Of a DNA stretch of 64,000 nt, positions 8,779-45,169 are shown one piece after another. Made by a program: the position numbers and the translations under genes. The DNA lies in the NCBI GenBank assembly GCA_041690595.1, contig JAWLHB010000005.1, positions 1-64,000 of the forward strand, given 5' to 3'. The notes beneath the pieces are model-generated. The model was not told where the DNA came from, did not search any database, and was given only the letters and a program-made list of their open reading frames with translations. Every line of letters begins with the position of its first letter. Position 1 is the first letter of the stretch. This stretch comes from Lentisphaeria bacterium (GTDB lineage: Bacteria; Verrucomicrobiota; Lentisphaeria; JABSQK01; JAWLHB01).

Positions 8779-8895
8779 TTAACAGCCGACGGCGGTCAGG
8801 CGGTCTGCCAGCAGGTGGTTGAACTGCTCACCGGTCGCGTCACGGATGTTGAGCAGGCGCTGGTGGACAGATTTGACGATGCTCTCGGCACTCAT
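8779..8895 (-). pseudogene. abiEii: Truncated AbiEii (type IV TA nucleotidyltransferase toxin), N-terminal remnant
   Basis: ATGA-coupled to the antitoxin; encodes MSAESIVKSVHQRLLNIRDATGEQFNHLL, resembling the AbiEii N-terminus (SV..RLLN.....GE.F..LL), then stops after 38 aa. Confidence 0.7.
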
Positions 8896-9482
8896 GGAAC
8901 CATCTCCAAGTAGGGACGCATGACGCGGGCCATCCGGCAGCACGTGGCGAATCGCCAGATTTCGTCGCGGGTGGCCTTCTTCTGCTGAAGCGCGTCGCGC
9001 AGCGCCTCGCGAGCCACGTCCAGCCCGATTCGGTTGCGGAACTTGAAGCAGTCGACGACCGTCTTGGCAGGCGAGTAGACACGAATGGCGATGCTGTCGG
9101 CGTCATGTTCCTCGATTCCCTCGCAGAAGGCGGGACCGGTGAGCGTCACGACCTGGAGGTCAATCCCCTTGCAGGTCGGCATGCGCGTGCCGCGCTTGAT
9201 CGCGATCCAGGTTTCCATCGGCATCTGGGTGGTGATCTCGTGAAACTGGAGGGCAGACAGCAGACAGATGATCCCATGTGGTACAGCGGCCGCCGCCGCG
9301 AGAAGCGTCTCATGCTCCGGCTGGTAGTCGGCCAGGGCATAGGCTCCCCGGCTGACACGCCGAAGCTCCCCCTTGTCAGCAAGATAAGGGAGCAGTGTCC
9401 GACTCGCTCCGGCCTCTTCGACATCGGCGGCCCGAATGACACCGCGCTTCCGCGCCAGGTCAATGATTCTCTCGGTCTGCAT
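8892..9482 (-). CDS. abiEi: Type IV TA antitoxin AbiEi
   Basis: N-terminal wHTH (LRRVSRGAY), ICLLSALQFHEITTQMP, VYSPAKTVVDCFKFRNRIGLDVAREAL; start placed at MQTER, downstream of the promoter. Confidence 0.88.
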   Translation of the reverse strand: MQTERIIDLARKRGVIRAADVEEAGASRTLLPYLADKGELRRVSRGAYALADYQPEHETLLAAAAAVPHGIICLLSALQFHEITTQMPMETWIAIKRGTRMPTCKGIDLQVVTLTGPAFCEGIEEHDADSIAIRVYSPAKTVVDCFKFRNRIGLDVAREALRDALQQKKATRDEIWRFATCCRMARVMRPYLEMVP

Positions 9483-9515
9483 GCCAGTGGTTCCGTGTTG
9501 ACGTTTCGAATCCAT

Positions 9516-13617: not shown

Positions 13618-13702
13618 GCAGGTGGATGACTTTCTCCAGCACCTCCGGGCGAAAGCCGGTTGCCTCGGACTCATTCATCAGACGTTCACGGGAGAGTCTC
13701 AT
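13526..13702 (-). pseudogene. abiEii: Second truncated AbiEii toxin remnant
   Basis: ATGA-coupled to the antitoxin; MRLSRERLMNESEATGFRPEVLEKVIHLL resembles AbiEii N-termini (GF....LEK), but similarity ends near 13613, before the KGGTA nucleotidyltransferase motif. Confidence 0.7.
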
Positions 13703-14499
13703 ATTTCGCCCTCCCACGACCGGGTCAGCACCTGTTCCGGCACGATCAGGTTCCAGTCGGCGACCAGGCGACCGGGTGCGCTTCGATCCATGTAGTGCGG
13801 CTGGCGCGAGCGGGCTTTTCGCAGCCTGTCGAGTTGGCTGTCCTCCGCCATCAACTGCTCCTGGTGCTGTTCGAGAAAGAAGCCGACCTTCGCGGCGGTC
13901 GTGGCATTCCGCAGGAGCAACGCATAGTCCACCACCTGTTGGATGTCGTAGTATTCCACTGATTCGGCGGAACGCCAGATCTCCTCCCAGCCGCCCCCGA
14001 GGTCCGGGCGGTCGAGCACGTCGACCAGCGACCGTTCCAGTGACGCGACACGTACATCTTGACCAAGCCGGTCAACCGTCTCGATGCTGAACTGCTCCTG
14101 GTCTGTCTCCCGTATTGCCTTCGGCGGGGAGACGCGACGGAAGCTGCAGCCTCGGAACTCCTTGGCCCGCACGGACCGGCTACTGACGAACACGTACTCG
14201 CTGGACACCGTGTATGCACGTCCGTGGAACTGGAACGCCGAGTGGTAGGCGATTGCGGCATCCTCGGTCAGCTTCGCGGCGACCAGCCAAGGGTCGGGTA
14301 CGAAGGAAGCCGGATCGCTCCCGGCGGGCACACTGGCATAGAGACCCCGCTGGATCTGGATCACATGCCCGGCACGGACATGATGGGCCAGCCGTGCGTT
14401 GACGGCACTTTGGTCAGTGGAGTAATCCGCCTGAAGCGTATCCTTCAACTCATCCCGCGTGAAAACGGGGTGTTTCGCCAAGAATGTCCGCATGTCCAT
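13699..14499 (-). CDS. abiEi: Type IV TA antitoxin AbiEi-family transcriptional regulator
   Basis: HPVFT, QIQRGLYA wHTH, IAYHSA..HG, SLERSLVDVLDRPDLGGG, WNLIVP; start placed at MDMRTF. Confidence 0.85.
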   Translation of the reverse strand: MDMRTFLAKHPVFTRDELKDTLQADYSTDQSAVNARLAHHVRAGHVIQIQRGLYASVPAGSDPASFVPDPWLVAAKLTEDAAIAYHSAFQFHGRAYTVSSEYVFVSSRSVRAKEFRGCSFRRVSPPKAIRETDQEQFSIETVDRLGQDVRVASLERSLVDVLDRPDLGGGWEEIWRSAESVEYYDIQQVVDYALLLRNATTAAKVGFFLEQHQEQLMAEDSQLDRLRKARSRQPHYMDRSAPGRLVADWNLIVPEQVLTRSWEGEI

Positions 14500-15014
14500 C
14501 GGTATAACCCTGACTTGATGATATCTGCGCCAACTGTAGGAAAACATAACACTTGAGGCGCTTGTCATCAAGTCGAACTGCCGTTCAGCCGGGGCACGGT
14601 TCGGCAACGCCGGAATGCGGTGGGGCCGGATTTTGCCGTTTTTCCGGTCGAACACGGCATAGAGAATGGTGAACGGCGTTGCGGGCCACCTGTCGTGCTC
14701 GTGCGTGGAGGGCTCCGACGTCGGGATGATGCGGGGGTGTCAGAAGCCAGCGTTAAGCAGACCGCGGGCGGGATGGGGGGAATGGGGCGAACCGCTGATT
14801 CTTGGGGGGAGAGAGCCGGGAATAGAGTTTTCCGGGCCGTAGAAACGGAGAGTCAACTGAGAGTCCGAGCGAGAGAAGGCGGTTCCAGGGCAGGGGTGCG
14901 CCCTGAACGAGGGGGCGGATAGAGTGCGGAGGCGGTCACCGTTGGCCGTCATGTCGTCGCCGCCGGAGTCGCAAATGCCTTTGGGACAGCGGGATTTGCG
15001 TGCCAGGAAACGAA

Positions 15015-15067: not shown

Positions 15068-15289
15068 GAAAGGAAATGGCTCCGGACTTTTTCTCGGCGT
15101 CGTAGATTGCCAAAGAGTGAACGGTAGCAGGGATCGGAGCGGTTTCCGTCCTTTCCCATGCGAATCCTCGCCAGCCTCCGACCTTTCCCACCAGGACAAC
15201 TCTCGAACCGGGTCACTCTGTGACCGCCGGGGGTCTGCGCGGCTTTGAGCCAGGCCAGCGCCGGGCGCTTAACGCTCTCCACACCGAGG

Positions 15290-17524
15290 TCATGTGGCCG
15301 GGGCAGTCTCACTATCGTCCTCAACCATAGCCTGGATCTCGACCAGCAAACGCTCTTCGGTAGACGTCAGACTGAACTCGTACTCGCGCAACGCCCGGCG
15401 TCGTTCTTCTCCAGTTGGCAGAGGCATGTCGAGTGCTCTTAACGCTGACGTGACGTCATGGGCTTGTCGTTCCAGCATGTCTTGGGGTTGAGGGTTGCCA
15501 CTCTTCTCGATGGTAACCCGGGCGAGTTGCGCCATGAGCAGAGACACGCACAGATGGCCGGGCACGTTGGCCTCACTCAGCCGTTCCCGCAACAGGTCCA
15601 TGTCGCTTTCGTAATTCCGCGTCAGGATCGGGAGATAGCCGATGTCCTCGTGGTCGTCCCCATCCTGGTCGCGCCATCGCTTCACACGCAGTGTTGTATT
15701 GAGGTTTTCGATGATCAGCCCCACGGCCATGGGCGCTTTGACCAGCCCCCTAACGTAGTACTCGAACACCCGGCTGTTGACCGCCACGAAGATGTCTATG
15801 TAGTTCCGCAACCCATAGATATTGCCCTTGCGCACATGGCGTTCGAGTCTCTGGTTGCGGTGCCGTTCCGCGAAATCCTGGACGGCCTTCTGGACCATCT
15901 GCTGATCTGCCTCAGATGGCTGTTCCGGCACTTCCTGCTGGGGGTCGTCAGACCGGAAAGGATCACGCTTCCGGGGAATGCCACGATGTCGCCCGAAGAA
16001 CTGACGGGGCTGGTCACTGAAATGGATTGTGTGCTCGCGCAACCAGCGCACCAGGCCCTCGAGACCGTCTTCCTCTTCTATCTCTGCCAACAAGAAGGCA
16101 AGTCCACGACCGCTCTCAATGACCTCACGCTCCGTCTTTGTGCGTTGGTCTCCTTCCCCCGGCACATGAGTAAGAGCGTCCTGCTGCACGAGCCAAGTCC
16201 GGTGACTCATCACGCGTGCGCCGTCAACCGTCGTGCAGAGCTCGCACGCGACGGCGTGACGCATTTCCGATGAGTCGGCTACGGTGAGCGTGGCCTGGCC
16301 TCGTTTCTTGGCCGGTACGCTCATAGGCGGCAGCGGGTCAATGCGCCCGGATGGGTATAGGCGAAGGGTCACATCGCAGCCCAAGAGGTCGTCGTCCATT
16401 CCGTATTCAATCTTGATCTTCCCGCCCGATTCAAGAACCGCTTCGCTCAGGTAGAGCCTGCCGCCCTCTGTGTGCGGTTCCGGCGTCGGGGGCTCTTCCG
16501 TACCTGGGACGAAGTCTCCAGGGGCTATCGCGACGAGCTTGAGTTCGTCATCGAACAGCAGATCGTCAACGCTCTCTCCGGTGTCCCATACGAAGCAGAC
16601 CTCAACGTTGATCCCATCCCAAGCCTCGCGCGTGAAGTTCGCACTGCCTGCCACGATGATGGTTCGCGCAGTCGTCTCGATGACCACCATCTTTGCATGC
16701 AGCCGCCGCTCCTGATGTCCACTCAAGGCAAAGAGTGCCGGTTGGGGCGTGATTCCTGCCAGCACGTGTGTTGGGAGATTGCTCGTATGCTGCTGGGCTG
16801 CGATGCGGAATTCGCAGTCAGGCCATGCGCGCTGCATGGTCTTGAGCACTGCCAGTTCGCGGTCGAAGAATGGCGAGAGCGCCGTGACGCGCTTCACCTC
16901 TTCGTCGCCGATACGGCTCTGGATCGCGTCCCAGAGCGGCTTGTCCAGATTGTGATGCAACTGCAGGTTGCCATCGATTCTACGCTGTCGCCTGGCGACT
17001 TGCAGCCAAGGGAGGGACTCCTTCAGGTCATCCACCCATTCCCTCGCCAGGGCTGCACTTCGGCGTTCACTTGCCGCCAAGGCGGTTTCAAAGAAGGCCA
17101 GTGCCTGTTGTGCCAGCGCAACGCTGGGAGGGGGCCTCTCCCCATCCTCAAGCTGAAACTGAACCGAGTTGAGCATTTCCAGGTTGTGCGTGCATCCAGG
17201 CTGGGTGAGATTGCAGCTCCCGCAGAAGACCATGGCGGCCTTCGTGGAAGCCAACAGGTGCAGCTTGGGATGGAACACGCCGGTCCTGCGGAAGATGGGA
17301 ACGAGAAGATAACGATGGTTCAGATGCCGCGTCGGCTCCCCGTCCTTCTGCAATTGCCGGTACTGATTCCCGTCCATCAGCACGACGATCCGCGTGGCAC
17401 TGGCCAGCGCGCGGGAGTTCAGCAGGCTCCGTTCGAAGTAGGTCGGCTGGAACGCGTATGTCGAGAAGAGCGCGATCTCCGCCGGGCATCGGTCCAGGAG
17501 TGTGCGGAAATCGGCGCTCCTCAT
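15290..17524 (-). CDS. Phospholipase D-superfamily protein (two HxK motifs), putative nuclease
   Basis: FHPKLHL...GSCNLT and LHAKMV...GSANFT, plus SPFFD; ATGA overlap with the upstream gene. Confidence 0.8.
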   Translation of the reverse strand: MRSADFRTLLDRCPAEIALFSTYAFQPTYFERSLLNSRALASATRIVVLMDGNQYRQLQKDGEPTRHLNHRYLLVPIFRRTGVFHPKLHLLASTKAAMVFCGSCNLTQPGCTHNLEMLNSVQFQLEDGERPPPSVALAQQALAFFETALAASERRSAALAREWVDDLKESLPWLQVARRQRRIDGNLQLHHNLDKPLWDAIQSRIGDEEVKRVTALSPFFDRELAVLKTMQRAWPDCEFRIAAQQHTSNLPTHVLAGITPQPALFALSGHQERRLHAKMVVIETTARTIIVAGSANFTREAWDGINVEVCFVWDTGESVDDLLFDDELKLVAIAPGDFVPGTEEPPTPEPHTEGGRLYLSEAVLESGGKIKIEYGMDDDLLGCDVTLRLYPSGRIDPLPPMSVPAKKRGQATLTVADSSEMRHAVACELCTTVDGARVMSHRTWLVQQDALTHVPGEGDQRTKTEREVIESGRGLAFLLAEIEEEDGLEGLVRWLREHTIHFSDQPRQFFGRHRGIPRKRDPFRSDDPQQEVPEQPSEADQQMVQKAVQDFAERHRNQRLERHVRKGNIYGLRNYIDIFVAVNSRVFEYYVRGLVKAPMAVGLIIENLNTTLRVKRWRDQDGDDHEDIGYLPILTRNYESDMDLLRERLSEANVPGHLCVSLLMAQLARVTIEKSGNPQPQDMLERQAHDVTSALRALDMPLPTGEERRRALREYEFSLTSTEERLLVEIQAMVEDDSETAPAT

Positions 17525-19296
17525 GGTTCCGCCTCCATCGCGGCAAGCTCACGTTCGAGGCATTCAATCCCATCCGCCGTAAGCGCCAGAATGCCGTCCT
17601 CCTGCTTTTGCATCCATCCGAGGTCTAGGAGTACCTGGATGGCACTGCGGAACCGGGGGTTCGTCACGCCAATGGCATCGTACGGGATGCCGCGTCCTAT
17701 GATCCGCCCGCGCTCCGTGTGGAACAGGATCTTCCCGCCGGAGCGGCTCTTGTCATAGGCCAGCGTCTCGTGTTGCCGAACGACGAATCGCTGAATCAGT
17801 CGTTTCCCCAGTTCGCGGAAGGGAACGCCCAACCAGTTGTCGTAGTGCGTGACGAGATCCTGCAGGACCAGGGGCACGGTGATGTCTTCGGACGCATCGT
17901 AGACGTTGTTCAGCAGCCAATCCGACTGGGGCTGGTCTCGCCAACCCGCAAACCGAGCCGTGACGACCGCCGACAATAGCAGAGATAACGCGATTCCCTC
18001 TGGGGTGTGAAGAATGTTCCGGTCGCGAAGCAGCGACTCGATTCCTGTCTCGGAGAGCGCATGACCAAGCCTGGCCAGCACGTCGAGGGAATCGTTCCAC
18101 TCGGGATGCGTGCCATCGGTCGCAATGCCGACGGCATGCGCAACGTCGGCCAGTGAAAGATCGATGAACAAGCCCGACAACTGACAACCCAAGTGCTCGC
18201 TCAGTCTCTCGGCGACATGACGACTGTCGAGAGGACTGATCAGGTCGTCCAGTGTGAAGCCGCCGAGTCCCGCATCGAGACCCTCGCGGACGACGCTCAC
18301 AAACAGCCCTTCCAGCGCCACCGACAGGTAGTAGTGGGCATGGAACAACCGCCACCTCCTGACGATGTCGTCCAGTGCTGCGGGCCACTCGATGTCAATG
18401 ACCGTTCCGTCGGGGCCATACGCCTGATTGAAGTAGGTTGTCGTGGCGAACGTAACCTCGTCCAGGATGATCTCCTGCGAGGCCAATCCGGATGCGAGAA
18501 ACAGGAATGCGATAATTGAGTCGTGCCGGAACCGGTGCGAATTGCGGCTGTTGCCGCCGACCCTCAAGAACATCGTCCGCAGCTCCTGCAACTCCGGCGC
18601 ACGTCCCGCAGCCAGGGCGCACAGCCCGGCCGCCTTGCCCCACCCGTCCAGTTCCTCAGGTGTCACTTCAGGACGAGACCGGGTAACGGCCGAGGCAACA
18701 GACGCTCCCGACACTGCCGTCCCGAAGAGTCGAGCCAACTCCGCGCCCGCCGGGGAAAGCAACAGGTCGTCTTCGGTGAGTTGCTCCGCGTCAGGGGATT
18801 TATCTGTCTCCTCATCTTCAGCGCCATCAGCCTCGGGTGCTGCACCGGCGAACAGGTCCAATCCTGCCAGCGATCCCTTGTAGGCATCCCAGGCCAGGTT
18901 CTTGCTCAGCTCAACCTTGTCGAGCCGCAGTGCATCCCCAGCGTTCGCCGCGACGACGTGCGCCGCTTCGCGTGATCCGATCAAGCCTCCCCCTTCACAG
19001 GGCTGGCCGCCATGGTCGAATGCACACCCAAGAGTCAGGGCGCGTTCACGAAGAAGGAGTGCCATCCGGAGACCGCCGTCGAGTGCGGTGCCTTTGACGC
19101 GGTCGAGGTAGTCCGCCACACACCAGGTCAGGAAGGAGTAGTAACGAGCCCGCGGGGTGATGGAGGTGATGCAGTAGAGAAGCTGGGCACCCAGCCGTGC
19201 CCCGACCCGCAGGTTCAACCCCAATGGGTCCTGCTCGGACGGGTTGGCCGTCTTCTCGCTCCAGTGGAGTAGAACTGTATCACCAGACTCAGCCAT
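17521..19296 (-). CDS. Hypothetical defence-associated protein with DPLG...TSITPRARYYSF motif (possibly DUF6361-related)
   Basis: 591 aa; N-terminal QDPLGL and ITSITPRARYYSF; C-terminal wHTH-like RFRSAIQVLLDLGW...LTADG; overlaps both neighbours. Confidence 0.6.
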   Translation of the reverse strand: MAESGDTVLLHWSEKTANPSEQDPLGLNLRVGARLGAQLLYCITSITPRARYYSFLTWCVADYLDRVKGTALDGGLRMALLLRERALTLGCAFDHGGQPCEGGGLIGSREAAHVVAANAGDALRLDKVELSKNLAWDAYKGSLAGLDLFAGAAPEADGAEDEETDKSPDAEQLTEDDLLLSPAGAELARLFGTAVSGASVASAVTRSRPEVTPEELDGWGKAAGLCALAAGRAPELQELRTMFLRVGGNSRNSHRFRHDSIIAFLFLASGLASQEIILDEVTFATTTYFNQAYGPDGTVIDIEWPAALDDIVRRWRLFHAHYYLSVALEGLFVSVVREGLDAGLGGFTLDDLISPLDSRHVAERLSEHLGCQLSGLFIDLSLADVAHAVGIATDGTHPEWNDSLDVLARLGHALSETGIESLLRDRNILHTPEGIALSLLLSAVVTARFAGWRDQPQSDWLLNNVYDASEDITVPLVLQDLVTHYDNWLGVPFRELGKRLIQRFVVRQHETLAYDKSRSGGKILFHTERGRIIGRGIPYDAIGVTNPRFRSAIQVLLDLGWMQKQEDGILALTADGIECLERELAAMEAEP

Positions 19297-22036
19297 CTGG
19301 AAGAATCACCTCGTCTGTCCGCTCAATTCGCTCCGATATCGTCTGCCGAAACTTCTCATTGTCGCAGCAGTCCAGCGCTTCCTGCCAACACTCTCTGGCA
19401 TCCGAGATCTGACCAGACCGTTCCAGAATTCCTGCCTTGCAGTCAAGGTAGGCCGCTCTGTATTTGCGCTGTGTCATGTCCAGAGCAAGGTCAATGTCCT
19501 TGAGCGCAGATGAAAAGTCGCCAGTCAGAGCATACGCCTGGGCGCACCGATGACGGAAGAAGGCGTTCCTTGAGGCTTCGTCTATTCCATCCAGAATGCT
19601 GAGTGCCCGTTCTCCGTCTTCCCGGAGAATCCAGTACTCGCCTGCCATCGTGGCACAGAAAGCTCTGCTCGTATCAACCAGTTCGTAGTATGCTTCTGCT
19701 TGTTCTAGCCACTGTTTCGCCTTCGCTGCGTCCCCGCTTTCAAGTAGCGCCTTACCGATGTTCTTCATCGTCTCCGCGACGCCAAAAGCGGTCTTGGAAT
19801 CGAGAAGCCGTGGTGCTGGTAGAGCGAGCGTTCTGGCAACGTCTAAGAGTGCATCAGAATTGCTGTACCACAATGAACGGGAAACAGCCGCCAGAGTGGT
19901 GAAGGGTTGACCGTATCCCTCACACTGCGCCATGGCGATTGCCTCCAAAGACAACTGCAGAAGTGTCTCGACAGGCATGATCACCTTCATGTCCCGCAGG
20001 GTTCCCGCGACCTCGATGGCGGCCAAAACCACTGTGATGGCCACGGAATCTGGGTCGGAGCTGAACTGTTCTAGAATCACTCGCAGGTGCTCTGCCTGCT
20101 CAGCTCCCTCGGTCAGGCGTGACAACTGGAGGCGAGTGTGGGGAGCGGAAGGACAGATCTGCAGTGCCTTTTGAAGCGCCGTCCTGGCCTCCTCTTCTTG
20201 CCCCAATCGGCGGTGAGCTTTGCCTTGGTGGTGTAATAGGCTGTGCTTTGTCAGTTCGGGCAATTGGAGCCTGTCCAGCGCCGCCACCTGATCGACTGTT
20301 ACTCGGTCCAATTGGCCCTGATCATCTCCGCCCAGGTGAAGGTGTCGCCATACTTCCCGCGCCTCAAATATGCACTCAATCGCTGTTCGGTCAGCTCCAT
20401 AGTCTCCCAGGTCCGCTTGCGCCAGATCACGAACGACTGAGGTGTCTCTCTCGGGCAGATCAAGTAGCAAGTACAGATAATGCAGCAAGTCTGGCTGTGT
20501 GCGGTTCGCCTTTACAAGGCTTGCCACTCTTGTGGCGCTTGTGTGAAGCGCCCGCTGGAAATGGTAGTCAGCAACATCAAGTCGCTGCTGAAAGAAGCGC
20601 AAAAAGCGTTCACCAAGGCTATGCGCATCCGCCTCATGCGTCCATCTGCGCAAGCATAAAACAACAGTGTCGTGCAGCCGGAGCAAACCGAAACTGTCGT
20701 CCGTTACAAGGCTTCGTCTTCTGAGCTTCGCCAGTCCGTGTCTACCGAACATGCTGACAGCAAGTTCGCCATCCAACAACTTCGAGTCCATCCATTTCGC
20801 CGCCGCGAGCTCGTCTCTAACGCTGCCAGCATGGCTTTGGAAGAGTCGGTCGAGAATCATAGACTGCGTCTGCAGGTCCTCGTAAGCTGGCCAATTCGCA
20901 GAGTCGCTGGCGACCTCCTGCATGGGGGCATCTCCGTGGGCAACGAGTCCCCGGATGATTGCCATCAGGAGTGGATGCCCCCCAGCACGCTCTACAATGA
21001 CGTCGACTGCTTGTGAGTCCTCAGGTGTCAGATCGTTCAGCCCAAGTGTGAGAATCTCTTTTGCGCAAGTTGGATTGGTGTCGGTAAGCGGAAACCCATG
21101 AACGGTAGGCATAGGAGCCAATTGAGATGAGACAACGATCTGGCTGCCACGCTCGAAACCCGGCTGCAGCTCACCAAAGCGTGACCGATCAATGGCTTCA
21201 TCCCATCCATCGACGACAAGCAGTGTCCGTGTGTTGTTGAACTGGCCCGCAAGATTGAATGACATTCCTAGCCTGCTGACGGTTACAGAAGCAAAAGAAC
21301 CGGCTGTCTCTGGGATGTCATCTCCGCTAAGCCAGACGACGTTTTCAAAGCCATCCAGTTTCTGAAGTGCTGAGCGTAGTAGGTACGATTTGCCGATGCC
21401 GCTAATGCCATAGACCACGACAACCGACTCGCTCTGCACGGCGCGAAGAAAGCTGTTCTCGCGGTCTGCGTCAATGACATAGTCTGATGGAGGCGAAGGC
21501 CGGTTATAGGCAAAACTATAGTCCCGCCACACTGCCGCCAGCGATGGAAGCAAATAAGCGAATCCCTCATACAACGTTGTCTTGGCAATGACTTGATCAT
21601 AGATCAATCGTGCAACACGCAAAAGGTCATATACCTCGATCTGGATCGTTCGTGGCTTGCATGCCTCTTCGGCTGCATGGATGGCGGCTTCCCAACGCGA
21701 ATTCGGGCATCCCTCATTGCTAAGCAGATACAGACGCTGCATAGCGGCGACCTGAGAGCAAGCGTGCTTGGCATCGTTCTCAATCTTGGTAAAAGGTGTG
21801 CTGAAGTAGCCGCCTTCTGTGGAGTATTCTGCAACGACTTGGCGCTCCCCATCAAAGGTGTCCACTGTGTACCCAACTGGCTGGGCGTTGGAGTTCAGCC
21901 CTCGATGAAGTAGAGGTCTGCCCTCGATAGCACTTACCAGCATATGTCCGACAATCTCAAACTCGGTCGCGTTGAGACTGGCAAGATCTCCGGCCAGCTT
22001 CTGAACAGCTACTCTCCTAAGGCGTTCGTTTGTCAT
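19289..22036 (-). CDS. STAND (NB-ARC-like) NTPase with N-terminal restriction-endonuclease-like domain and C-terminal TPRs (Avs/NLR-like)
   Basis: Walker A GISGIGKS, Walker B LLVVDGWD, GxP motif GGHPL, LHD motif, several TPR-like repeats; N-terminal FE..G / TVD / EYS Mrr-like pattern. Confidence 0.75.
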   Translation of the reverse strand: MTNERLRRVAVQKLAGDLASLNATEFEIVGHMLVSAIEGRPLLHRGLNSNAQPVGYTVDTFDGERQVVAEYSTEGGYFSTPFTKIENDAKHACSQVAAMQRLYLLSNEGCPNSRWEAAIHAAEEACKPRTIQIEVYDLLRVARLIYDQVIAKTTLYEGFAYLLPSLAAVWRDYSFAYNRPSPPSDYVIDADRENSFLRAVQSESVVVVYGISGIGKSYLLRSALQKLDGFENVVWLSGDDIPETAGSFASVTVSRLGMSFNLAGQFNNTRTLLVVDGWDEAIDRSRFGELQPGFERGSQIVVSSQLAPMPTVHGFPLTDTNPTCAKEILTLGLNDLTPEDSQAVDVIVERAGGHPLLMAIIRGLVAHGDAPMQEVASDSANWPAYEDLQTQSMILDRLFQSHAGSVRDELAAAKWMDSKLLDGELAVSMFGRHGLAKLRRRSLVTDDSFGLLRLHDTVVLCLRRWTHEADAHSLGERFLRFFQQRLDVADYHFQRALHTSATRVASLVKANRTQPDLLHYLYLLLDLPERDTSVVRDLAQADLGDYGADRTAIECIFEAREVWRHLHLGGDDQGQLDRVTVDQVAALDRLQLPELTKHSLLHHQGKAHRRLGQEEEARTALQKALQICPSAPHTRLQLSRLTEGAEQAEHLRVILEQFSSDPDSVAITVVLAAIEVAGTLRDMKVIMPVETLLQLSLEAIAMAQCEGYGQPFTTLAAVSRSLWYSNSDALLDVARTLALPAPRLLDSKTAFGVAETMKNIGKALLESGDAAKAKQWLEQAEAYYELVDTSRAFCATMAGEYWILREDGERALSILDGIDEASRNAFFRHRCAQAYALTGDFSSALKDIDLALDMTQRKYRAAYLDCKAGILERSGQISDARECWQEALDCCDNEKFRQTISERIERTDEVILPDG

Positions 22037-22095: not shown

Positions 22096-24075
22096 TCACT
22101 CCTCACCGCCTATCCCATCCCACGCCACCGGGACCAGCTTCGTACCTTCCCGCCAGCGTTCTACGACGCAGTCCTGGAACCACTGCTGGTTGATGTTCGC
22201 GTGGTCGGTCACGATGATCTGAAACTGGCCGCCCAGCATCTGGACAACGTCGTATGCCAGCTGGTACATGCGCTCCACCTTCTGCCTGTCCTCACCGATT
22301 CCAGGCGTGCCATTCTCCTGGCGCTGCCAGTCCTCGTCCTCCGGGAAATAGACCTGTGAAGGCTGATCGATGAAGATGAAGCGTGGCACGGGACGATTGC
22401 GGTTCACGAACCATCGGTGCAGGGCAAAGTGAGTGATGAGATGGTAGCCGACCCAGTTCTCGCCGCTCCCCATCTGATCCATCGGGATCGGATGCCCATC
22501 GACTCCATCCGCGACCACGGTCAGCCGCCGAAGGTCGAGGCGAAGCGGCAATTCAGAGTGCTCGAGCTGGAGTATCGCTGCCCAGGCATTCATGTCCCGG
22601 GCGATGTATGAGAGTGCCGACTGTACGCGTTCCTCGACTGTGTCGTCATTCAGTTCGTCCTCGAGCGTGTTCACTTGCGCCTGCAGGTCGGCAACTTGTC
22701 GCTGCAACTCGCTGCTATCTTCGAGCTGTGGAACACTCTCCAGGTAGAGGCTGACCCGGCCCATTATGTGTGCGCGTCGGGCGTTCTGGTCTCTATACTC
22801 CTGCAACCTGGCGTTTTCCCGCTGGATCGCCTCGAGTCGTTCCTTGTTGTCCCGAAGGCGCGACTTGATTTCGGCTTCCTTCTCCTCCAAGCCGGTAACG
22901 ACGGCCTGCATCTGGGGTGCGCGGTCTTCGACATGCCGGACCTGGGCTTCGAGTTGAGCAAGTGAGTTCTGAACGTCTTGTACTGAGGGAGCCACGTCCT
23001 CTGCTGGCAAGACCCGCTGGCACAGTGGGCAGGCGGTATGCCTGTTCGAATCCTCGTGTTGAGCGTCAAACAACTCAATACTCTTCAAGCGAAGAACCTG
23101 GGCGTGAGCTTCATGAGAGAAACCTCGACGATCCGTTGCCAGGGCACGGGCGGCCTCGAGCTGGTCCCGCGTTACCCGCAATTCCTGCGTCAACTCATCC
23201 CGCTCTGCCTGTAATCTGCGGAACTCGTCGCCCTCGACGGCTGCCTGCTCCTCGTCGGGAACGGCGACTGCCTGGCTCAGATCGCGGAGGGCCTGCAGGC
23301 AGGCGTCCCAGGCCTCCGGCATCGGTAGTCCGGCACGCAGCCCCAAGTCGGTGGCTTCGGAAAGCAGGCCCTGCGCAACGGTGACGCCTTCGCCCCTGAC
23401 TGCATTGTACTCCGCGAGTTTGCGCTCGACTCGCCGTAATTCCCGGCGGAGCCGTCGCAACTCCGCCATTCGGGTGACGTAGTCATCGTCAACAGCTCCC
23501 AGAAAATACGGGATGGTGTCCTTGATAGCTTGAGGCAACCACTGGTCGCTCTGCTTGTGAAAGAGGTGACGATTACTGTCAATTTCGGTCTGGTGCTGGA
23601 AGCAGTAGATCAGGGCATGGGCAATACCGGCCTGCAGCGGTTGTCGCGTTTGTCCCGGCGGTGGGTCATGACGATTCTGGCCGATGCCTGCGTGCGCGGC
23701 GAGCAGTCCTTCGAGAGCATTAGGGTTAGTTGTCTGCATGAGCTGATCGGCCCGTGGCAGGGGGACCTGCTGCCCGACAACGTAGTGGACGTCTGTTGAT
23801 GAGTTGCGCCCCGAGTCTGGCAGCCTCCTGGCAATAAACGCTTCCCCAGCGGGGACGGCCAATCGTACTCCTGCCCAAGCGACGGCTCGACGCATGATCC
23901 CAGCGGGTATGTGGCATTCCGTTGAACCGAAACAGTACTCAAGCACGGATATCAGCGCCGTCTTCCCGGTCTTGGAGGAACCCGTGATGATGTTAAGCCG
24001 TCCGGGCGCGAATTCGAGCCGCCGCATTTCACCATTGTGTGAGTAGAGGACAATATCCTTGATCTGAAAACTCAT
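22096..24075 (-). CDS. lmuB: Lamassu/ABC-three-component SMC-like ATPase (DUF3732)
   Basis: Walker [11 protein letters not shown], coiled coil with CPLC hook, MGSGENW and [13 protein letters not shown] at 24075 overlaps the upstream stop. Confidence 0.88.
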
Positions 24076-24569
24076 GGGCGAATCCCCCAAAGTGCCATTA
24101 ATGTCTCTGTCGATGCGCTCGTGCCGAACCACTTCCCCAGGAAGCGCGCACGAGACACGCATTCCTGCGCATCGCCGTCGAGCGACCGGATGGCCCGATT
24201 GATCTGGTTCCCGGTGACCACGCACCGAATGAGGCCCGAGTCTCCCATAGCCATCCAATCGAAGACGAGGCCATAACGCAACGCCTCTCGGGTGTGAGGC
24301 TTGAGGGCCATGAGGCGCTCGTGGAAACCAACTCTTACTTCGGCATGGTCCTGCAACCAGGCCGGAACGGAAGTCCGGGTGTTGCGAGGCAGGGATTCCC
24401 GAGTGTGTTTATGCAAGACGATTGGCAAGACCATGAAAGCCACGGCAAACGGTAGCGGCTGGTCGTTTGGCTCGCTGAAACCGGCGCAGGCTGAGCTCAG
24501 TGTCACACAGCAGAATGGCGGATTCAGAAGGTGGGCTTCTTCTCGCGTTCGTTCGGGCCACGGCTTCAT
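24072..24569 (-). CDS. lmuC: Lamassu/ABC-3C middle component
   Basis: [16 protein letters not shown]...R..LP, LGKWF, terminal LWGIRP; sits between the effector and the ATPase. Confidence 0.82.
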
Positions 24570-25771
24570 GAGCTTGCCTCCGCGTTTGAGAGGAGTTCCT
24601 GAAGTCGTTCGCGGAAGTCGAGATGCCACCCCACCCGCAGGTCATCCGCCAGCATCTGGTAGGTACCACGCGCTATCGCAGGTTCCGTAACGCCGCGCCG
24701 AATGGGCTTGTGCGCGCCTGTTTCAACCCACTTGTAGAGAATTTGGGCTGCACGAGTCATCTCATCTTCCGCGGCGGTGTCGCCAAGGTCGTCACGCATC
24801 TGCTGGAAGAGCAGATCCCACTCCTCGATCAACCGCTCTTCATAGCGGTCGAGCTCACCAACGTACAGGAGATCCTCGCGCATCCAGCGGGAACGGTGCT
24901 CTCGGGCTCGATAGTAGTTTCGGATGGCGTGAAGCACTCGGTTCGGGTTCACCCCTATGATATTCAATTGCTCCACGAAAGGCCTGTCCATATAGCCGCT
25001 GGCATCGACTGTCGCCCGCATAATGTCATCATCAACGGGAAGGCTTTCGTCGCTGAGCTGAGCACGAATCCGATTCGCCTCGGACTCAAGCTCCTCGCCC
25101 AGAATGGGAGCGGCAGAGCCGTCAGTCAAGTGGCGCAGAACCCGCCCGTACCACCACCCCTCCAGCCGCTGAAGATAGGAATCCAAGAAGCGTCGCTCGA
25201 CGGCAAAGAACACCGCTTGCCGAAGTCGATCATCCAGTTGTCCGATGGATGGCGAACCATCCAGAACCAACACTGCCTTCGCAAGACGCAGTCGCCCACT
25301 ATCGTCAAGCGACGAGAAGGCTCGGTACGCCGGGGCATTCGTGTCGCTGGTTGAGGTCGAGGCCGTGGCCGCGAGGCGTTCAAGCGCCTTCTTTTCGTCT
25401 CTGCCCTCAGGACGGAGATAGGCCGCTGCTGTGCCGTCTGGACAAGCCGCCGTAGTCACCATGAAGAACTGCGCATCCCTGGGAATCGTCCCGTCGGCTT
25501 GACCTTCAATCCAGATCCGGAGCGTCTTCCACAGGTCCGGGGATGCATCCGTGAGACTGGCTTCAGCATTGATGTGGTGCTTTGTCTGCAGAACGTCCAC
25601 GGCCGAGCCGTCTGTCTCGAACACCACGTCGTCAAGGGTCTCGATGCCGACGCAGATCCGTTCTCCCTCGGGAAGGCGACGCAATATCTCAAGCAATGCA
25701 TATCGGCACTGGTAGAAGTAGCCCAGTGCCGCTGGTGCCGCCGAATACTGACCCCGTTCTCCAGTACTCAC
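24566..25771 (-). CDS. lmuA: Lamassu effector with Cap4-like PD-(D/E)xK nuclease and ABC-3C C-terminal domain
   Basis: SA...ALGY.YQ..YAL, ETLDDV, QTKHH, DLWKTL..W; C-terminal RGTYQMLAD..VGWH. Confidence 0.82.
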   Translation of the reverse strand: MSTGERGQYSAAPAALGYFYQCRYALLEILRRLPEGERICVGIETLDDVVFETDGSAVDVLQTKHHINAEASLTDASPDLWKTLRIWIEGQADGTIPRDAQFFMVTTAACPDGTAAAYLRPEGRDEKKALERLAATASTSTSDTNAPAYRAFSSLDDSGRLRLAKAVLVLDGSPSIGQLDDRLRQAVFFAVERRFLDSYLQRLEGWWYGRVLRHLTDGSAAPILGEELESEANRIRAQLSDESLPVDDDIMRATVDASGYMDRPFVEQLNIIGVNPNRVLHAIRNYYRAREHRSRWMREDLLYVGELDRYEERLIEEWDLLFQQMRDDLGDTAAEDEMTRAAQILYKWVETGAHKPIRRGVTEPAIARGTYQMLADDLRVGWHLDFRERLQELLSNAEASS

Positions 25772-25956
25772 GATGCCGCCTCTTCATAGGTTACGCCGAA
25801 GATCGTGTCCGCCAGCCATTTCTTGAAGTCCGGGTTGTCGCTGAACTGCTTGAACAGCTCCGTGTGGTCGGAGAGCATGCCGATTACCGCTTTCCCCATT
25901 GCCCGGTCGTGCTCCATCATGCTCCTGTTGGGAATTGTCGGTCGGGTCTTTTTCAT
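25768..25956 (-). pseudogene. 62-aa mini-ORF matching the extreme C-terminus of a different type I HsdR
   Basis: EHDRAMGKAVIGMLSDHTELFKQFSDNPDFKKWLADTIFGVTY resembles a common HsdR C-terminal tail; coupled by 4-nt overlaps to both neighbours. Confidence 0.65.
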
Positions 25957-26684
25957 GTTCCCTCCCTGCCGTCTCGCTCCTCGACCTCGAATGCGACATA
26001 GCAGTGCCACTCGCGCTCCAACTCGGCTTCGCGGCTCTTGCAGTCGGGCATGGCCTCCTCCAAAATCTGCCAGAACCGTTGCGAGTGATTCCGCTCAAGG
26101 CGATGACCCAGCTCGTGAGCAACGATGTAGTCAATGAGGTGAACGGGGAGTTGAAGCACCCGCCAGTTGAAATGCAGGGAGCCGCTCTTGCCGCATGATC
26201 CCCAGCGAAAACCAAGATCCCGAACGTCAACGACGGCATTGCCCCCACCGATTTTCGGAAGAAGAGCCGGAACTCTCTCCGCAAGCCATTCACGCCCGGC
26301 TTGGATGAACCACTTCCGGAAGAGGGCTGTAGCCCCCGGCTGATCCGCACGTCGCAGCGTGAACCACTCTCCATCGAATTGAAGAGGCTGGTCTTGGTCG
26401 CCCACGAGCTTCAGACGATAGCTCTGGCCGAGATAGAAGATGCTCTCGCCGGTCACGAACTCCAGGGGGCGTCGCCGGGGGCGAAGATCCTCCTTCTCGG
26501 CCAGCTTCCTGTGAACCCAGAGCAGTTTCTTGCCAATCCATTTTCGCAGCTGCTGATCGTCGGTCGCCTCGGGCGCGTGGACTACCAGTTCTCCGGCACG
26601 ATCCACAGTCAGGCCGAATGTCTTGCGACGTGCGCTGCGGCGAACTTCGAAATCCAGGTCTGCAATGTGCAGTATCTCAGTCAT
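25953..26684 (-). CDS. M48/YgjP-like (DUF45) zinc metallopeptidase associated with type I R-M
   Basis: RWGSC, FNWR, DYIVAHELGH...NHSQRFW; directly after hsdR. Confidence 0.9.
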   Translation of the reverse strand: MTEILHIADLDFEVRRSARRKTFGLTVDRAGELVVHAPEATDDQQLRKWIGKKLLWVHRKLAEKEDLRPRRRPLEFVTGESIFYLGQSYRLKLVGDQDQPLQFDGEWFTLRRADQPGATALFRKWFIQAGREWLAERVPALLPKIGGGNAVVDVRDLGFRWGSCGKSGSLHFNWRVLQLPVHLIDYIVAHELGHRLERNHSQRFWQILEEAMPDCKSREAELEREWHCYVAFEVEERDGREGT

Positions 26685-29600
26685 TCCCGTACCAGGCTCT
26701 CGTGGTTTTCTTTCGCCAAAGCGACCAATCTCTGTGCAAGATCCCGCTCTTTCCCCGGAGGGCAGATCCCGGATGCGTCAAGGTCACGCACAAGCTGCCG
26801 AGTCAGGAGTTCCCTCATGGGCGTATTTTTCCAGAAGCCGACCTTCCGTACTTCCTGCCGGACTCGTTCGACCATCTCAAGTGTGGTGCCAATGACCGCC
26901 TTGCGGCGCTTTTCGTCCTCTGCACCGTCAGCCAAGCAGACCTCAAGGACCAAGCGCACGAATGGAACCTGAACCCTTGGGTCGAGCCCCGGGAAATCGG
27001 CGGTGTCACCACGTCTCAGTTCGTCAATGAACTTCCGAAGTTCACGCTCAAGTGCATCCCAATCGTCCTTGAAGCGCTGAAGGATCTCTTCCAGTTTCTC
27101 GCTCATTTTGCGGGCGAATGCCGGGTTATGATTCGCGAAACCGATGATGTGGTAGCGGGCCGCGTGCTGCATCTGCGCCGCACGCGCTCGACTGCTATTC
27201 TGGGCCTGAAGGACGCGCTCGAATTCTGCATCTGTGATCGTCGTCGGCGGGATTTTCGGATCGACGCCCCTGGCTGAAATGTGCGCATCGATCAGGGCTT
27301 TGACTTTCTCAGCGACCCCCAGCAAGTTGAGCGCCGGATCACGGTAGAGGTTCGCAGCCACCTTGTTGATGAAGCCCAGCAACTTGGCGTCGCGGAACAC
27401 ATCAACGGGCACCTCCGGCCGGTGTTCGAGGATGTTCAGAGTCTCGTAGAACATCCTCAACTTGTTGATGAACTCCGCGCGCGTCTTGAGGTCGGCCAAA
27501 AGGTCCACGCATTCCTGGACTTCGCTGAACAGGTCGGTCACACCTCGGTCTGTGAATACTGCCACAGCTCGGTCCCGCCTGGCTAGGAGTTTGGGCAACT
27601 CCACGCTGATATCGATCAACGCGCCCTCCGTGTCTTCGCCGTCGTAGTCCTCAAGCGCCTTGTTCAGGTGCCTGGCAACCCCGATGTAATCCACCACATA
27701 GCCACATTTCTTGCCCGCGCCGGTACGGTTGACGCGCGCGATGGCCTGCAACAGATCGTGTGCGACGATCTTCCGATCCAGATACATCACCTGTTCGACC
27801 GGAGCATCGAAGCCGGTGATGAGCATGTTGTTCACGACGAGAATGCAGAGCGGGTCGGTCTTTTCTGTTCGCGCCGCCGCTAACCTCCGCTTGAACCTTG
27901 CCGTGAATTGCTTCTGTTTCTCTTTGTCCGTCCAGTCCCACCAGGATTCGGGATCATTGTGGTCACCCGAGATGACCACCGCCACATCCATGGCTGTGAG
28001 CGTCGGCAGCAGAGGGTGTGTCCGCACCAGAAACTGCGTCTCTGCGTCAAGACGCGACAGTTCATCATCGTCCATCGTGAGCGTTGCGCCCGGCAGTGCT
28101 TCCAGTTGACCGACCAGGATGTCCCGGGCCTCCAGGAGCTTGTCCCGATAGACCACCGCTGCCCGACGGCTGGTGGCGACGACCTGTGCTTTGAAGCCCT
28201 CCGGCATCACCACGCCGACGTAATGGCGCAGCATGTCTTCCGCCTTCCTGGCAATCAGCATGGGAGCTTCCAGAACATCCCCTTCTGTACCGTACTTCGC
28301 CTTGATAACGGCCAACTCGTCTGCCGTGTAGTCTCGGAACATATCTTCGAAGAGCTGATCCAGGCTGTCGGCATCCTTGACCATTCCATCGGCTGTTCGC
28401 CCTTCGTATAGAATTGGGACCGTCGCTCCGTCCAACTCGGCATCTTGCAGCAGGTACTTGTCGATGAAATCGCCGAAAATCTCCCTCGTCTCGGTTTTGT
28501 CCTTGCTGAGGATGGGCGTGCCAGTGAAACCAATGATGGCGGCGTTCGGCAGAGCCCGGCGCAGATTACGGTGGAGACTGCGGGTATGGGAACGGTGTGC
28601 TTCATCGACGAGCACCAGGATCTCCTCGCTCTCGTTCAAGACGGGGAACTCCTCGAACCGAATTGTCTCCTCGAATGTCACCTCGCGTTCTACGACAGGC
28701 TCCTCGCGTCCAGGGCGTTTCTCTTTGCGTACGATGGTCATGGCGACGCGGTCGTCACTCGAGAGCTGTCGGTTGCGGTCCTGGTACTTCTGAAGCATAG
28801 CGAAGACGATATCGGGCGTCGGTTCGCTGAGTATTCTCTGCGTGAGGGCCGTCGGGGATTCCCTCCCGCCGCGTTCCCGATCCGTTGGGCGCACGGCTTC
28901 GCCGCTGAGAGCAGCGGTCTCGCGAAGCTGTCCCTCCAAGTCCGTACGGTCTGTAACCGCTACTACTTTGAAGCGTTTTAGACGCTCCAGCGTCCGCATC
29001 TTGCGCACCAGAAACACCATACTGAGGCTCTTGCCCGAGCCTTGGGTATGCCAGATGATGCCGCCCCGCTCGTCGCGCTCAGCTCCTTGCAGTTTCGTGC
29101 GACCCTCCTGAAGCTGCTTCACGGCCCTATGGACGGCCCGGAATTGCTGGTAGCGGGCCACGACCTTACGCGTTTTTCCATCAACCTGCCGGAAGGTCGA
29201 GAAGCTACGGACGATGTCCAACAGATGCTCCGGTCGCAGCATCCCGGCGACCAGCACCTGCTGGCTGGCAAGCTGCGAGGCCCCATCGCCTCGGAGTGAC
29301 TCAGGTCGCTTGCCAGGCTCTCGGAAGAAAATCGGTGTACCGGCACGCCCTGTCTCCTCCGGGCCGATGGCAGCAAGGGCATCTGCCGCTTCTGGTTCTG
29401 CTGTAGGCCGCTCAAGCAGGCCGAGTTCACCTGCCACGGTGCTCATGGCGACAGGTGAGGTGTCCGCCCATTCCAGGTAGACCTCTGGCGGTGCCCCGAT
29501 TGTCCCAACCCGGGCTTCGAAGAAATCGCTGGCGATCAGCAGTTGGTTGGTGTGGAATAGGCGTTCGACTCCTTCGTTGTCTTGATAGAGCGTCGGCCAC

Positions 29601-30175
29601 ACTTCGCGGCGTTGGTTTGAGTAGCGTAGAAGCTGATTTATGGCCTGACTGAGAGGATTCTCGATTGCCGGGCTCTTGAACTCGGCCACGACGAGGGGGA
29701 TGCCATTGATGAAGCATACGGCATCGGGAATCACGTGCCCGCGCCCGCTGGTCAGCTCGACCTTGAACTGGTTGATGACAAGGAAGTCGTTGGTCCCCGT
29801 CTTTTCCCAGTCGATGTAGCGTACGGGCTGAGGACGGCCATGGTCCCAATCAGGCAGGCCATCGACGACCGTTCCCTTCAAGAGGAGGCGTGTGGCCCCC
29901 TGGTTGATCTCCATCAGCCTGTGTCCGGCCGCCTGTTCCAGATCACGGATGGCCTTGGCGATACGAACATCGTCCAACCACGGCTTGCCATCCCGCAGGT
30001 TGATGCGCCTAAGTGCCTCTGCCAGTCGGGAGCGGAGCAGAACGTCCCGCGAGGTCGCGCGCTCTGTCGTCTCAGGCAGGTCGGGATCACCCTCGATCCA
30101 CTGCCAGCCCATGGTTTCCAGTTGTTGGCAGAACGGCTTCTCAACGACCTCGTATTCCCATTGGACGGCACTCAT
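26681..30175 (-). CDS. hsdR: Type I restriction endonuclease subunit R
   Basis: PD...NGIPLVVAEFK nuclease, WHTQGSGKS, DEAHRS, FTGTP, ITGFDAP, QAIARVNR. Confidence 0.96.
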   Translation of the reverse strand: MSAVQWEYEVVEKPFCQQLETMGWQWIEGDPDLPETTERATSRDVLLRSRLAEALRRINLRDGKPWLDDVRIAKAIRDLEQAAGHRLMEINQGATRLLLKGTVVDGLPDWDHGRPQPVRYIDWEKTGTNDFLVINQFKVELTSGRGHVIPDAVCFINGIPLVVAEFKSPAIENPLSQAINQLLRYSNQRREVWPTLYQDNEGVERLFHTNQLLIASDFFEARVGTIGAPPEVYLEWADTSPVAMSTVAGELGLLERPTAEPEAADALAAIGPEETGRAGTPIFFREPGKRPESLRGDGASQLASQQVLVAGMLRPEHLLDIVRSFSTFRQVDGKTRKVVARYQQFRAVHRAVKQLQEGRTKLQGAERDERGGIIWHTQGSGKSLSMVFLVRKMRTLERLKRFKVVAVTDRTDLEGQLRETAALSGEAVRPTDRERGGRESPTALTQRILSEPTPDIVFAMLQKYQDRNRQLSSDDRVAMTIVRKEKRPGREEPVVEREVTFEETIRFEEFPVLNESEEILVLVDEAHRSHTRSLHRNLRRALPNAAIIGFTGTPILSKDKTETREIFGDFIDKYLLQDAELDGATVPILYEGRTADGMVKDADSLDQLFEDMFRDYTADELAVIKAKYGTEGDVLEAPMLIARKAEDMLRHYVGVVMPEGFKAQVVATSRRAAVVYRDKLLEARDILVGQLEALPGATLTMDDDELSRLDAETQFLVRTHPLLPTLTAMDVAVVISGDHNDPESWWDWTDKEKQKQFTARFKRRLAAARTEKTDPLCILVVNNMLITGFDAPVEQVMYLDRKIVAHDLLQAIARVNRTGAGKKCGYVVDYIGVARHLNKALEDYDGEDTEGALIDISVELPKLLARRDRAVAVFTDRGVTDLFSEVQECVDLLADLKTRAEFINKLRMFYETLNILEHRPEVPVDVFRDAKLLGFINKVAANLYRDPALNLLGVAEKVKALIDAHISARGVDPKIPPTTITDAEFERVLQAQNSSRARAAQMQHAARYHIIGFANHNPAFARKMSEKLEEILQRFKDDWDALERELRKFIDELRRGDTADFPGLDPRVQVPFVRLVLEVCLADGAEDEKRRKAVIGTTLEMVERVRQEVRKVGFWKNTPMRELLTRQLVRDLDASGICPPGKERDLAQRLVALAKENHESLVRE

Positions 30176-31692: not shown

Positions 31693-32342
31693 GATTGTGC
31701 TCCTTCGTTATCGGCGGGCGGGATGGACGCTCGTACCGCACCTTCATCTGCCAGGTTTTCCTGAACAAATCGTTCGACCTCCTGGTATCTGGAAAACTGG
31801 GCCGTCGCGTAGAGGGCTGCATCCTCCGTCGATCTGTATTTCTGCACCCAGTTGCCCTTCCTCTCACGTATGGGCCTGTCTGCAAGGGTGGCCGCCTCGT
31901 ACATGTCAATGACCCGGAGGTCGTTGATCACCGCGTTCTTATTGAGCTGCAATGCACGCCTGGACTCCGCATCACCGTGCCCCAGATTCATCAACAGAGA
32001 GCGGGCGAACACCACGTCGCTGTGAGACAATACCCACCGAGGCTTCTTGAGCTCTATAGCTCGCAGCATCTCTCGATGCGTAATAGAAAGCTCGTCCTTA
32101 GCTTCCTTGCCGCTGCCGTAGTGCGGCGTGATCAACCCGAGGAAGAGGTCACACTTCTCCACAGCTGCCAGGCAATTCTCGAACGCGGTTCGATTGGAGA
32201 ACACTGGAACGGTGCCCTTGTGGGACATCCACACTTCGTAGCCGAAGGCAGTCAGCAATGCATAGACGCGATCCAGCAGCTCCTCAATCCCATACACCGA
32301 GGAGGAAACCATGACCACGAGTTTCGTCTTCTTAGCCATCAC
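31689..32342 (-). CDS. DUF4062 (TIR/SLOG-like nucleotide-related) domain protein
   Basis: VMVSSSV, NCLAAVEKCDLFLGLI..HYGS, SITHREM..A. Confidence 0.8.
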   Translation of the reverse strand: MMAKKTKLVVMVSSSVYGIEELLDRVYALLTAFGYEVWMSHKGTVPVFSNRTAFENCLAAVEKCDLFLGLITPHYGSGKEAKDELSITHREMLRAIELKKPRWVLSHSDVVFARSLLMNLGHGDAESRRALQLNKNAVINDLRVIDMYEAATLADRPIRERKGNWVQKYRSTEDAALYATAQFSRYQEVERFVQENLADEGAVRASIPPADNEGAQS

Positions 32343-33745: not shown

Positions 33746-33848
33746 GACCGATTCGCCTCCGGAATCACACGTCTTTCGTCGCCGCAATAGGCCATCGCTT
33801 TTCTGCAGTGCCGCGAAGCCGCAAGTTGTTGTGGGAGCAACTTCAACC

Positions 33849-36449: not shown

Positions 36450-36453
36450 GCTC

Positions 36454-42697: not shown

Positions 42698-42701
42698 CTA
42701 T

Positions 42702-45141: not shown

Positions 45142-45169
45142 ATCGGCGGTATATGCCTTTAATAGTCGG

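Follow-up and report, generated by a model that had tools for sequence, protein, structure and literature searches.

The locus considered here lies in the first 64,000 nucleotides of contig JAWLHB010000005.1 from a Lentisphaeria bacterium (assembly GCA_041690595.1), a stretch to which we refer as the window. It contains three genes on the minus strand, termed the STAND gene, gene A and gene B, in the following surroundings:

22096..25771, minus strand: Lamassu LmuA-LmuC-LmuB, context lying upstream on the same strand
19289..22036, minus strand: STAND gene, 915 aa, Avs-like and apart from the A-B pair
17521..19296, minus strand: gene A, 591 aa, by sequence a remote ZacA/DUF6361 relative
15290..17524, minus strand: gene B, 744 aa, a double-HxK PLD protein
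15073..19278, minus strand: block common to the window and the locus L001 at 96% DNA identity, consisting exactly of gene A (starting near its codon 7), gene B and a 3' trailer
15067-15048 and 15038-15015, minus strand: two terminator-like hairpins with T tails, from a hairpin scan

An earlier note on this DNA had described three ORFs overlapping stop-to-start at the end of a defence operon, and these are present as claimed, the ORF map of the window giving an overlap of 8 nt between the STAND gene and A and of 4 nt between A and B. The defence setting is likewise confirmed by PADLOC matches upstream of the trio to Lamassu LmuA, LmuC and LmuB, a type I RM system, PD-T7-3 and PDC-S28. Of the tandem terminator that was said to close the operon, the two hairpins with T tails do exist, but the scan as a whole returned 8 hits against a shuffle mean of 9.1, i.e. 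chance level; since this total is not above that of the shuffles, the terminator pattern is by itself weak. The hairpins are missing in the 96%-identical locus L001, where the block common to both stops at 15073. The junction between the STAND gene and A is spanned by a contig from another sample (run X7, 19241-19404, with 7 differences), and its presence in this second sample indicates that the arrangement does not stem from misassembly. Among copies of the A-B pair, the closest comes from a Victivallales genome bin.

The earlier note had raised the possibility that the trio is a new three-component system or, alternatively, two stacked systems, one of them poorly described. Neighbourhood analysis of homologues contradicts the former and supports the latter. 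Neither phmmer nor tblastn recovered a STAND homologue in any of 140 loci carrying the A-B pair, 78 of them extending 3 kb or more beyond the start of A, and a STAND-family profile gave only partial P-loop or TPR matches in three of the 140 (L022 with its duplicate L116, and L043). Neither A nor B occurs at the seven loci fetched for full-length homologues of the STAND protein (one genome and six plasmids, a count that excludes the three closest homologues, P0122-P0124, at 51-63% identity). L001 matches the window from 19278 to 15073 at 96% identity and has nothing in common with it upstream. Contigs of runs X1, X2 and X9 track the pair up to 19276-19278 and then diverge, the upstream letters of X1 being those of L001 and those of X9 being different; run X1 may be the source of L001. 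No STAND gene intervenes in L061, where only 21 bp separate the end of an LmuB orthologue (77-84% identical) from A; L061 is one contig of 3.5 kb, and its A is frameshifted. A contig joint skipping the STAND gene was not seen among the run contigs. The STAND gene has an SD-like GGGAG of its own, and its GC3 is 0.58 as against 0.66-0.74 in 12 neighbours. Searches for its close homologues gave one full-length match in 400 other genomes of the phylum, and none in 320 other genomes of the class or in phage records. Taken together, we consider it highly likely that the STAND gene is independent of the A-B pair, which it precedes in this lineage only. The block 15073-19278 common to L001 marks a mobile unit, and the locus is a clean instance of cassette stacking, in which Lamassu and the pair flank an Avs-like gene and overlapping codons imitate a single system.

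The 915-aa STAND protein displays a Walker A motif (GISGIGKS at 210-217), a Walker B D276, a GxP and an HD at 455-456, all of them invariant in the 12 aligned homologues. Its Pfam matches to NACHT, NB-ARC and AAA_16 are weak and below cut-off, and TPR families are found above cut-off in its C-terminal region. The N-terminus is REase-like, with atlas feature matches to Mrr_cat clusters at 0.93; E27 and D59 of the motif are invariant, E70 is found in 11 of the 12 homologues, and the motif ends in E-x-S, Ser72 replacing the usual Lys in all 12. Avs3 and Avs4 are antiviral STANDs with an N-terminal nuclease. By its domain composition the 915-aa protein is most likely a single-gene, Avs-type phage sensor. 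It is like the Avs proteins in its putative effector-STAND-TPR layout and single-gene behaviour, and differs from them in its E-x-S motif ending and in matching no Avs model of PADLOC (2023 version), where three of its homologues also went without a match. Six STAND homologue accessions are absent from the 7 supplementary files of PMC13581612, and the family may nonetheless belong to a clade described there. Three mutually 74-76% identical STAND homologues, from plasmids of Pseudomonas (L154:5906-10721), Sphingomonas (L156:5888-10706) and Burkholderia (L157:5779-10703), lie directly after a dTMP kinase gene, along with a divergent radical SAM gene, and these two genes match PDC-M51B and PDC-M51A weakly; possibly, a viperin-like module is linked to this STAND subfamily.

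The 140 pair loci were fetched with an alignment of 132 gene A homologues obtained by word search, 60 of the loci coming from genomes and 80 from metagenomes. They span Verrucomicrobiota, Planctomycetota, Alphaproteobacteria, Acidobacteriota, Chloroflexota and other lineages, and clustering the 138 in which an A ORF was called, at 90% identity, yields 117 groups. A locus is informative if the match reaches the A C-terminus and at least 600 bp lie beyond it; of 96 such loci, 94 have a B homologue whose start is no more than 500 bp downstream of A. A without a following B was encountered in the remaining two, L011 and L018, and also in L168 and L172. Clustering of all ORFs from the 140 loci revealed no third conserved gene, the most frequent neighbour family being an integrase in 10/140, and no methyltransferase as a fixed neighbour family; MTase-like ORFs occur at varying distance in 15 of 64 loci by motif scan. 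Compared with L001, A and B show dN/dS values of 0.16 and 0.13, respectively (NG86 count). The mirror-tree correlation of the two genes is 0.97, which we do not count as evidence because kin share both of them. The adjacent same-strand gene carries a defence-type Pfam domain (for instance TIR, HsdM, HsdS, Mrr, GmrSD, BrxL, AbiEii or HEPN) in 26 of 65 loci, a count over 88 proteins that was judged by Pfam names with no background rate, and many pair loci have non-defence neighbours. The viral contigs searched held no gene A relative. A and B are, in sum, a conserved two-gene cassette. As for the A-like genes that lack a PLD gene after them in L168:7387-12289 and L172:6078-11700, the latter locus has a PLD-like ORF upstream instead.

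Across 107 homologues of A the DPLG and TPRARY motifs are invariant or nearly so. While A itself has no direct match in Pfam, NCBIfam or PADLOC, ZacA/DUF6361 included, 49 of 53 distant full-length homologues match ZacA within its first ~115 positions (E<=0.01), and hhalign comparison of the A family with ZacA gives 84% (A1) and 97% (A4). The superfamily behind A amounts to 1605 clusters at 50% identity (E<=0.001), with true ZacA among them. These profile matches mark A as a remote relative of ZacA having the N-terminal ~135 aa in common with it. The structural model of A has a pLDDT of 90.6 and no PDB match in Foldseek, which is no proof of a new fold. A helix at ~250-273 together with residues 547-591 resembles a PadR-type winged helix (Z 10.0, rmsd 2.8 over 87 residues), and A is hence predicted to possess a split winged-helix domain; a sequence motif and secondary structure suggest a second winged helix at 135-195. 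Twelve basic positions are conserved in A, and C42, H95, C100 and C226 may constitute a Zn site. A likeness of A to the nickase N.BspD6I, extending over 208 residues (Z 7.4, rmsd 5.8), was within background.

The model of B (pLDDT 86.6) comprises a two-lobed PLD domain (1-335), an FnIII/Ig-like domain (355-450) and a helical C-terminal domain (460-740). B has the features of the two-lobed PLD superfamily, namely the PLD fold and two HxK motifs, H85-x-K87 and H276-x-K278, each with a GSxN; all 70 full-length B proteins compared keep both HxK and both SxN unaltered, 67 of the 70 have G102, and both motifs are without the HKD aspartate. B matches ZacB with E 8e-20 over 79-323 only (69 bits vs 487-562 for true ZacB), and hhalign aligns it to the ZacB profile at 99.1% over 311 columns. 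Its best sequence matches in the PDB are weak, and are to BfiI (E 0.0035), SauUSI and NucT. The fold neighbours found with VIA-align (Z 19-22) are vaccinia F13, a PLD, Tdp1 (Z 19.2) and PLD4 (Z 19.1), and the closest folds include lipases; given these neighbours, the fold leaves the substrate unfixed. The modelled fold and its motifs would thus fix the chemistry of B as being of the PLD type, and not its substrate.

Structure prediction for A 8-559 with B 1-448, a segment that ends before the C-terminal domain of B, gave a complex score of 0.68, whereas none of 3 controls scored above 0.00; of pairs used as a benchmark, 116 of 157 solved and 2 of 215 mismatched ones attain this mark. Between runs, 91% or more of the contacts recur, and partner pLDDT is 84 or higher. 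A and B are accordingly predicted to bind each other. The surest of the predicted contacts link A 9-13, part of an N-terminal LLHWS peptide with the conserved W12, to the B strand 117-119, and A 460-536 is predicted to touch B at ~104-122 and 270-279, beside the catalytic motifs.

Both the ZacB match of B and the ties of A to ZacA through its homologues bear out the link to the Azaca system that the earlier note had suggested. Azaca was reportedly described originally by Millman et al. in 2022. As set out in a bioRxiv preprint (10.1101/2025.07.10.664194), it consists of ZacA (DUF6361), ZacB (PLD) and ZacC (SF2 helicase), protects against T4 more than a million-fold with all three subunits required, and cuts T4 DNA preferentially in a manner that depends on ZacA, ZacB, ZacC and the Walker A of ZacC. 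According to the same source, the role of ZacA is not known and its conserved residues are dispensable for cleavage. The pair is like Azaca in its gene order, with an A gene followed by the PLD gene in stop/start overlap, in its defence-island setting, in the remote homology of the N-terminal ~135 aa of A, and in the homology of the two-lobed PLD domain. It is unlike Azaca in that A is without a direct ZacA/DUF6361 match, in the size of its proteins (510-610 aa vs ~400 aa for A, and 710-940 aa vs ~620 aa for B), and in that the pairs of the type seen in the window are without ZacC.

The earlier note had also stated that such a pair usually travels with a helicase and that none adjoins the trio here. 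The latter is correct, and the former holds for true Azaca but not for the longer family to which this locus belongs. A reverse profile search with the A homologues retrieved short proteins (355-445 aa) in genomes, and 12 of these 14 short-match control loci are complete Azaca operons (ZacA, PLD and ZacC). By comparison, nine of 14 longer-match loci have a long A and then a long PLD, two of the nine ending soon after, and they show no ZacC-sized gene thereafter with the exception of a UvrD-like gene in L167; as to the other five, L168 and L172 are without a following PLD, L173 is of another type, and L163 and L171 had no ORF and were dropped. A search for ZacC near the pair gave three weak partial helicase matches only in the 140 loci, and in 10 whole genomes carrying the pair the ZacC matches reach at most 44 bits, as in control genomes, against at least 886 for true ZacC. 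In the window B is followed by terminator-like hairpins and not by ZacC. Helicase-domain genes of differing families adjoin the pair in 5 of 65 loci and in L167, and one lies two genes off in L158. A quick unrooted tree of 40 PLD domains sets 31 long forms (SH-aLRT 88) apart from 8 ZacB (99); being unrooted, it does not order helicase gain versus loss. The pair thus falls outside Azaca on the helicase. By analogy it probably works like the Azaca nuclease core, and given that cleavage by Azaca needs ZacC and its Walker A, a helicase-free form needs another route of activation.

Two further arrangements were noticed around A-like genes. The locus L173:3071-9929 represents a third Azaca-like type, with a 440-aa A-like protein, a 704-aa PLD protein and a 1143-aa helicase that is nearer to PDC-M27C than to ZacC, while an operon on a Sphingobium plasmid (L158:2979-11967) encodes a DrmD-like SNF2 helicase, a 587-aa unknown protein, the A-like gene product and an 822-aa PLD protein.

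Among other known systems, the PADLOC candidate PDC-M27 (components A, B and C, compared by HMM names) is matched weakly by B (PDC-M27B, E 1e-8), whereas A has no PDC-M27A match and PDC-M27C, which is matched by helicases, has no such counterpart beside the pair; our literature search found no paper on PDC-M27. With BfiI, NgoAVII, SauUSI and related PLD-winged-helix fusions, as treated in PMC11037411, the pair has in common the predicted PLD nuclease chemistry and a putative DNA-binding module. In the enzymes covered there nuclease and recognition reside in one chain, whereas here the predicted winged helix is on a separate subunit, and the pair differs further from PLD restriction enzymes in having two HxK motifs in one chain and no cognate methyltransferase. 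The methyltransferase that stands beside the nuclease in type II/IIS restriction-modification was, likewise, not found for the pair; its absence would be consistent with modification-dependent cutting as in type IV restriction. A description of the A-B pair was not found in a literature search by titles and the starts of abstracts, to which subscription journals contributed little. The pair is in these terms an undescribed variant of the Azaca kind, and the STAND gene an unnamed Avs-like gene.

The reading that we favour, by a modest degree, is that A and B form an Azaca-related, helicase-free cassette whose products bind each other and serve, against phages or plasmids, as a DNase that needs no ATP, the STAND gene being stacked separately. 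Of its parts, a role of the pair in defence is likely, and cleavage of DNA by the A-B complex is slightly better than an even bet. Under this scheme A would bind DNA and position or gate B, the W12 peptide of A and its residues 460-536 packing on the PLD domain beside the catalytic motifs, and B would cut through a phospho-histidine intermediate with neither metal nor ATP. As there is no cognate methyltransferase, self must be spared in some other way, most likely by the target being a non-host feature such as modified bases; recognition of modified bases would fit both the T4 preference of Azaca and the ability of wH domains to read modified DNA, as reported in PMC11037411. A bolder version, which we advance only tentatively and regard as somewhat improbable, is a two-subunit restriction enzyme free of both motor and methyltransferase, in which a double-winged-helix reader is clamped by its N-terminal peptide on a double-HxK PLD and reads modified phage DNA.

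These readings have to be weighed against several others. A true trio, with the STAND-TPR protein as the sensor of a phage protein and, instead of the helicase, as the activator of the A-B nuclease, would account for the 8-nt overlap and the apparent single operon, seen also across the junction in run X7, and the Ser in place of Lys in the nuclease motif of all 12 STAND homologues might mean that this protein needs an outside effector. It is nonetheless highly improbable in view of the absence of STAND homologues from the 140 pair loci, including the 78 with sufficient upstream sequence, the 7 STAND loci without the pair, the different upstream DNA carried by pair copies that are more than 90% identical, and the differing GC3. 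The pair often comes last in operons of the RM, BREX, DISARM or Lamassu type, as would be expected of an accessory nuclease that borrows a motor or sensor from a neighbouring or host system, be it one of these or UvrD, in the way of DrmC in DISARM; the helicase-domain genes near the pair in 5 of 65 loci and in L158 and L167, and the helicase requirement of Azaca as given in the preprint, point in the same direction. Against this, no neighbour family exceeds 10 of the 140 loci, none is a helicase family in a fixed position, and many loci have the pair by itself, next to integrases or housekeeping genes; we deem such a borrowing unlikely.

Comparably unlikely is a role in defence in which the PLD does not attack intact DNA but works by Tdp1-like removal of protein-DNA or end adducts, as an end-directed exonuclease, or through membrane lipid hydrolysis leading to abortive infection. 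The nearest folds (F13, a PLD, Tdp1 and PLD4) and the lack of the HKD aspartate in both motifs would suit such a substrate, but the homologous ZacB cuts DNA within the Azaca complex, according to the preprint (10.1101/2025.07.10.664194), BfiI, SauUSI and NucT rank first by sequence profile, though weakly, and the partner A has a predicted winged helix. A yet smaller chance is given to a function outside defence, either as mobile-element cargo for DNA repair or as a toxin-antitoxin-like module with A restraining B: the patchy distribution, the integrase and resolvase neighbours and the predicted covering by A of surfaces beside the catalytic motifs of B are compatible with it, whereas a tested anti-phage system contains relatives of both genes, defence-type genes adjoin the pair in 26 of 65 loci, and the pair here ends a defence operon. 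Should the bolder version, the two-subunit restriction enzyme, be true, the pair would represent Azaca reduced to a minimal core, from which one could learn both what the helicase contributes and how ZacA-like proteins read their targets. The natural two-gene form of the pair over many phyla makes target recognition and ATP-free switching of a PLD testable with two proteins, and a modification-dependent ATP-free cutter, if real, would be a useful reagent.

The remainder of the window offers some additional observations. Two AbiEi antitoxin-like genes are found at 8892-9515 and 13699-14655, with no AbiEii among the scanned ORFs; the former has a counterpart of 87% identity in L001, at 600 bp past the pair, and in the window 5.5 kb, including a gene for a 1198-aa hydrolase/beta-propeller protein, separate it from the pair. 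The short intergenic stretch before LmuA (25778-25916) is matched by many unrelated contigs from four runs, and is possibly a repeated mobile-element or recombination site. Beyond Lamassu, at 26681-40438, lies the type I RM system, whose HsdM-HsdS are split from HsdR by a PDC-S28 helicase and by PD-T7-3-like, DUF4062 and AlbA2/RecG-like genes; this region consists of further stacked cassettes. The AlbA2/RecG-like protein contains a short tandem peptide repeat (EVTEEVTEEATEEVTGGVTGEVTEEVTEQ) at 30400-30520. A segment of low GC (0.50-0.55) at 41132-49326 codes for a substrate-binding protein, a B12 radical SAM protein, an ABC ATPase, a methyltransferase, a histidine kinase-like protein and a sigma-54 regulator.
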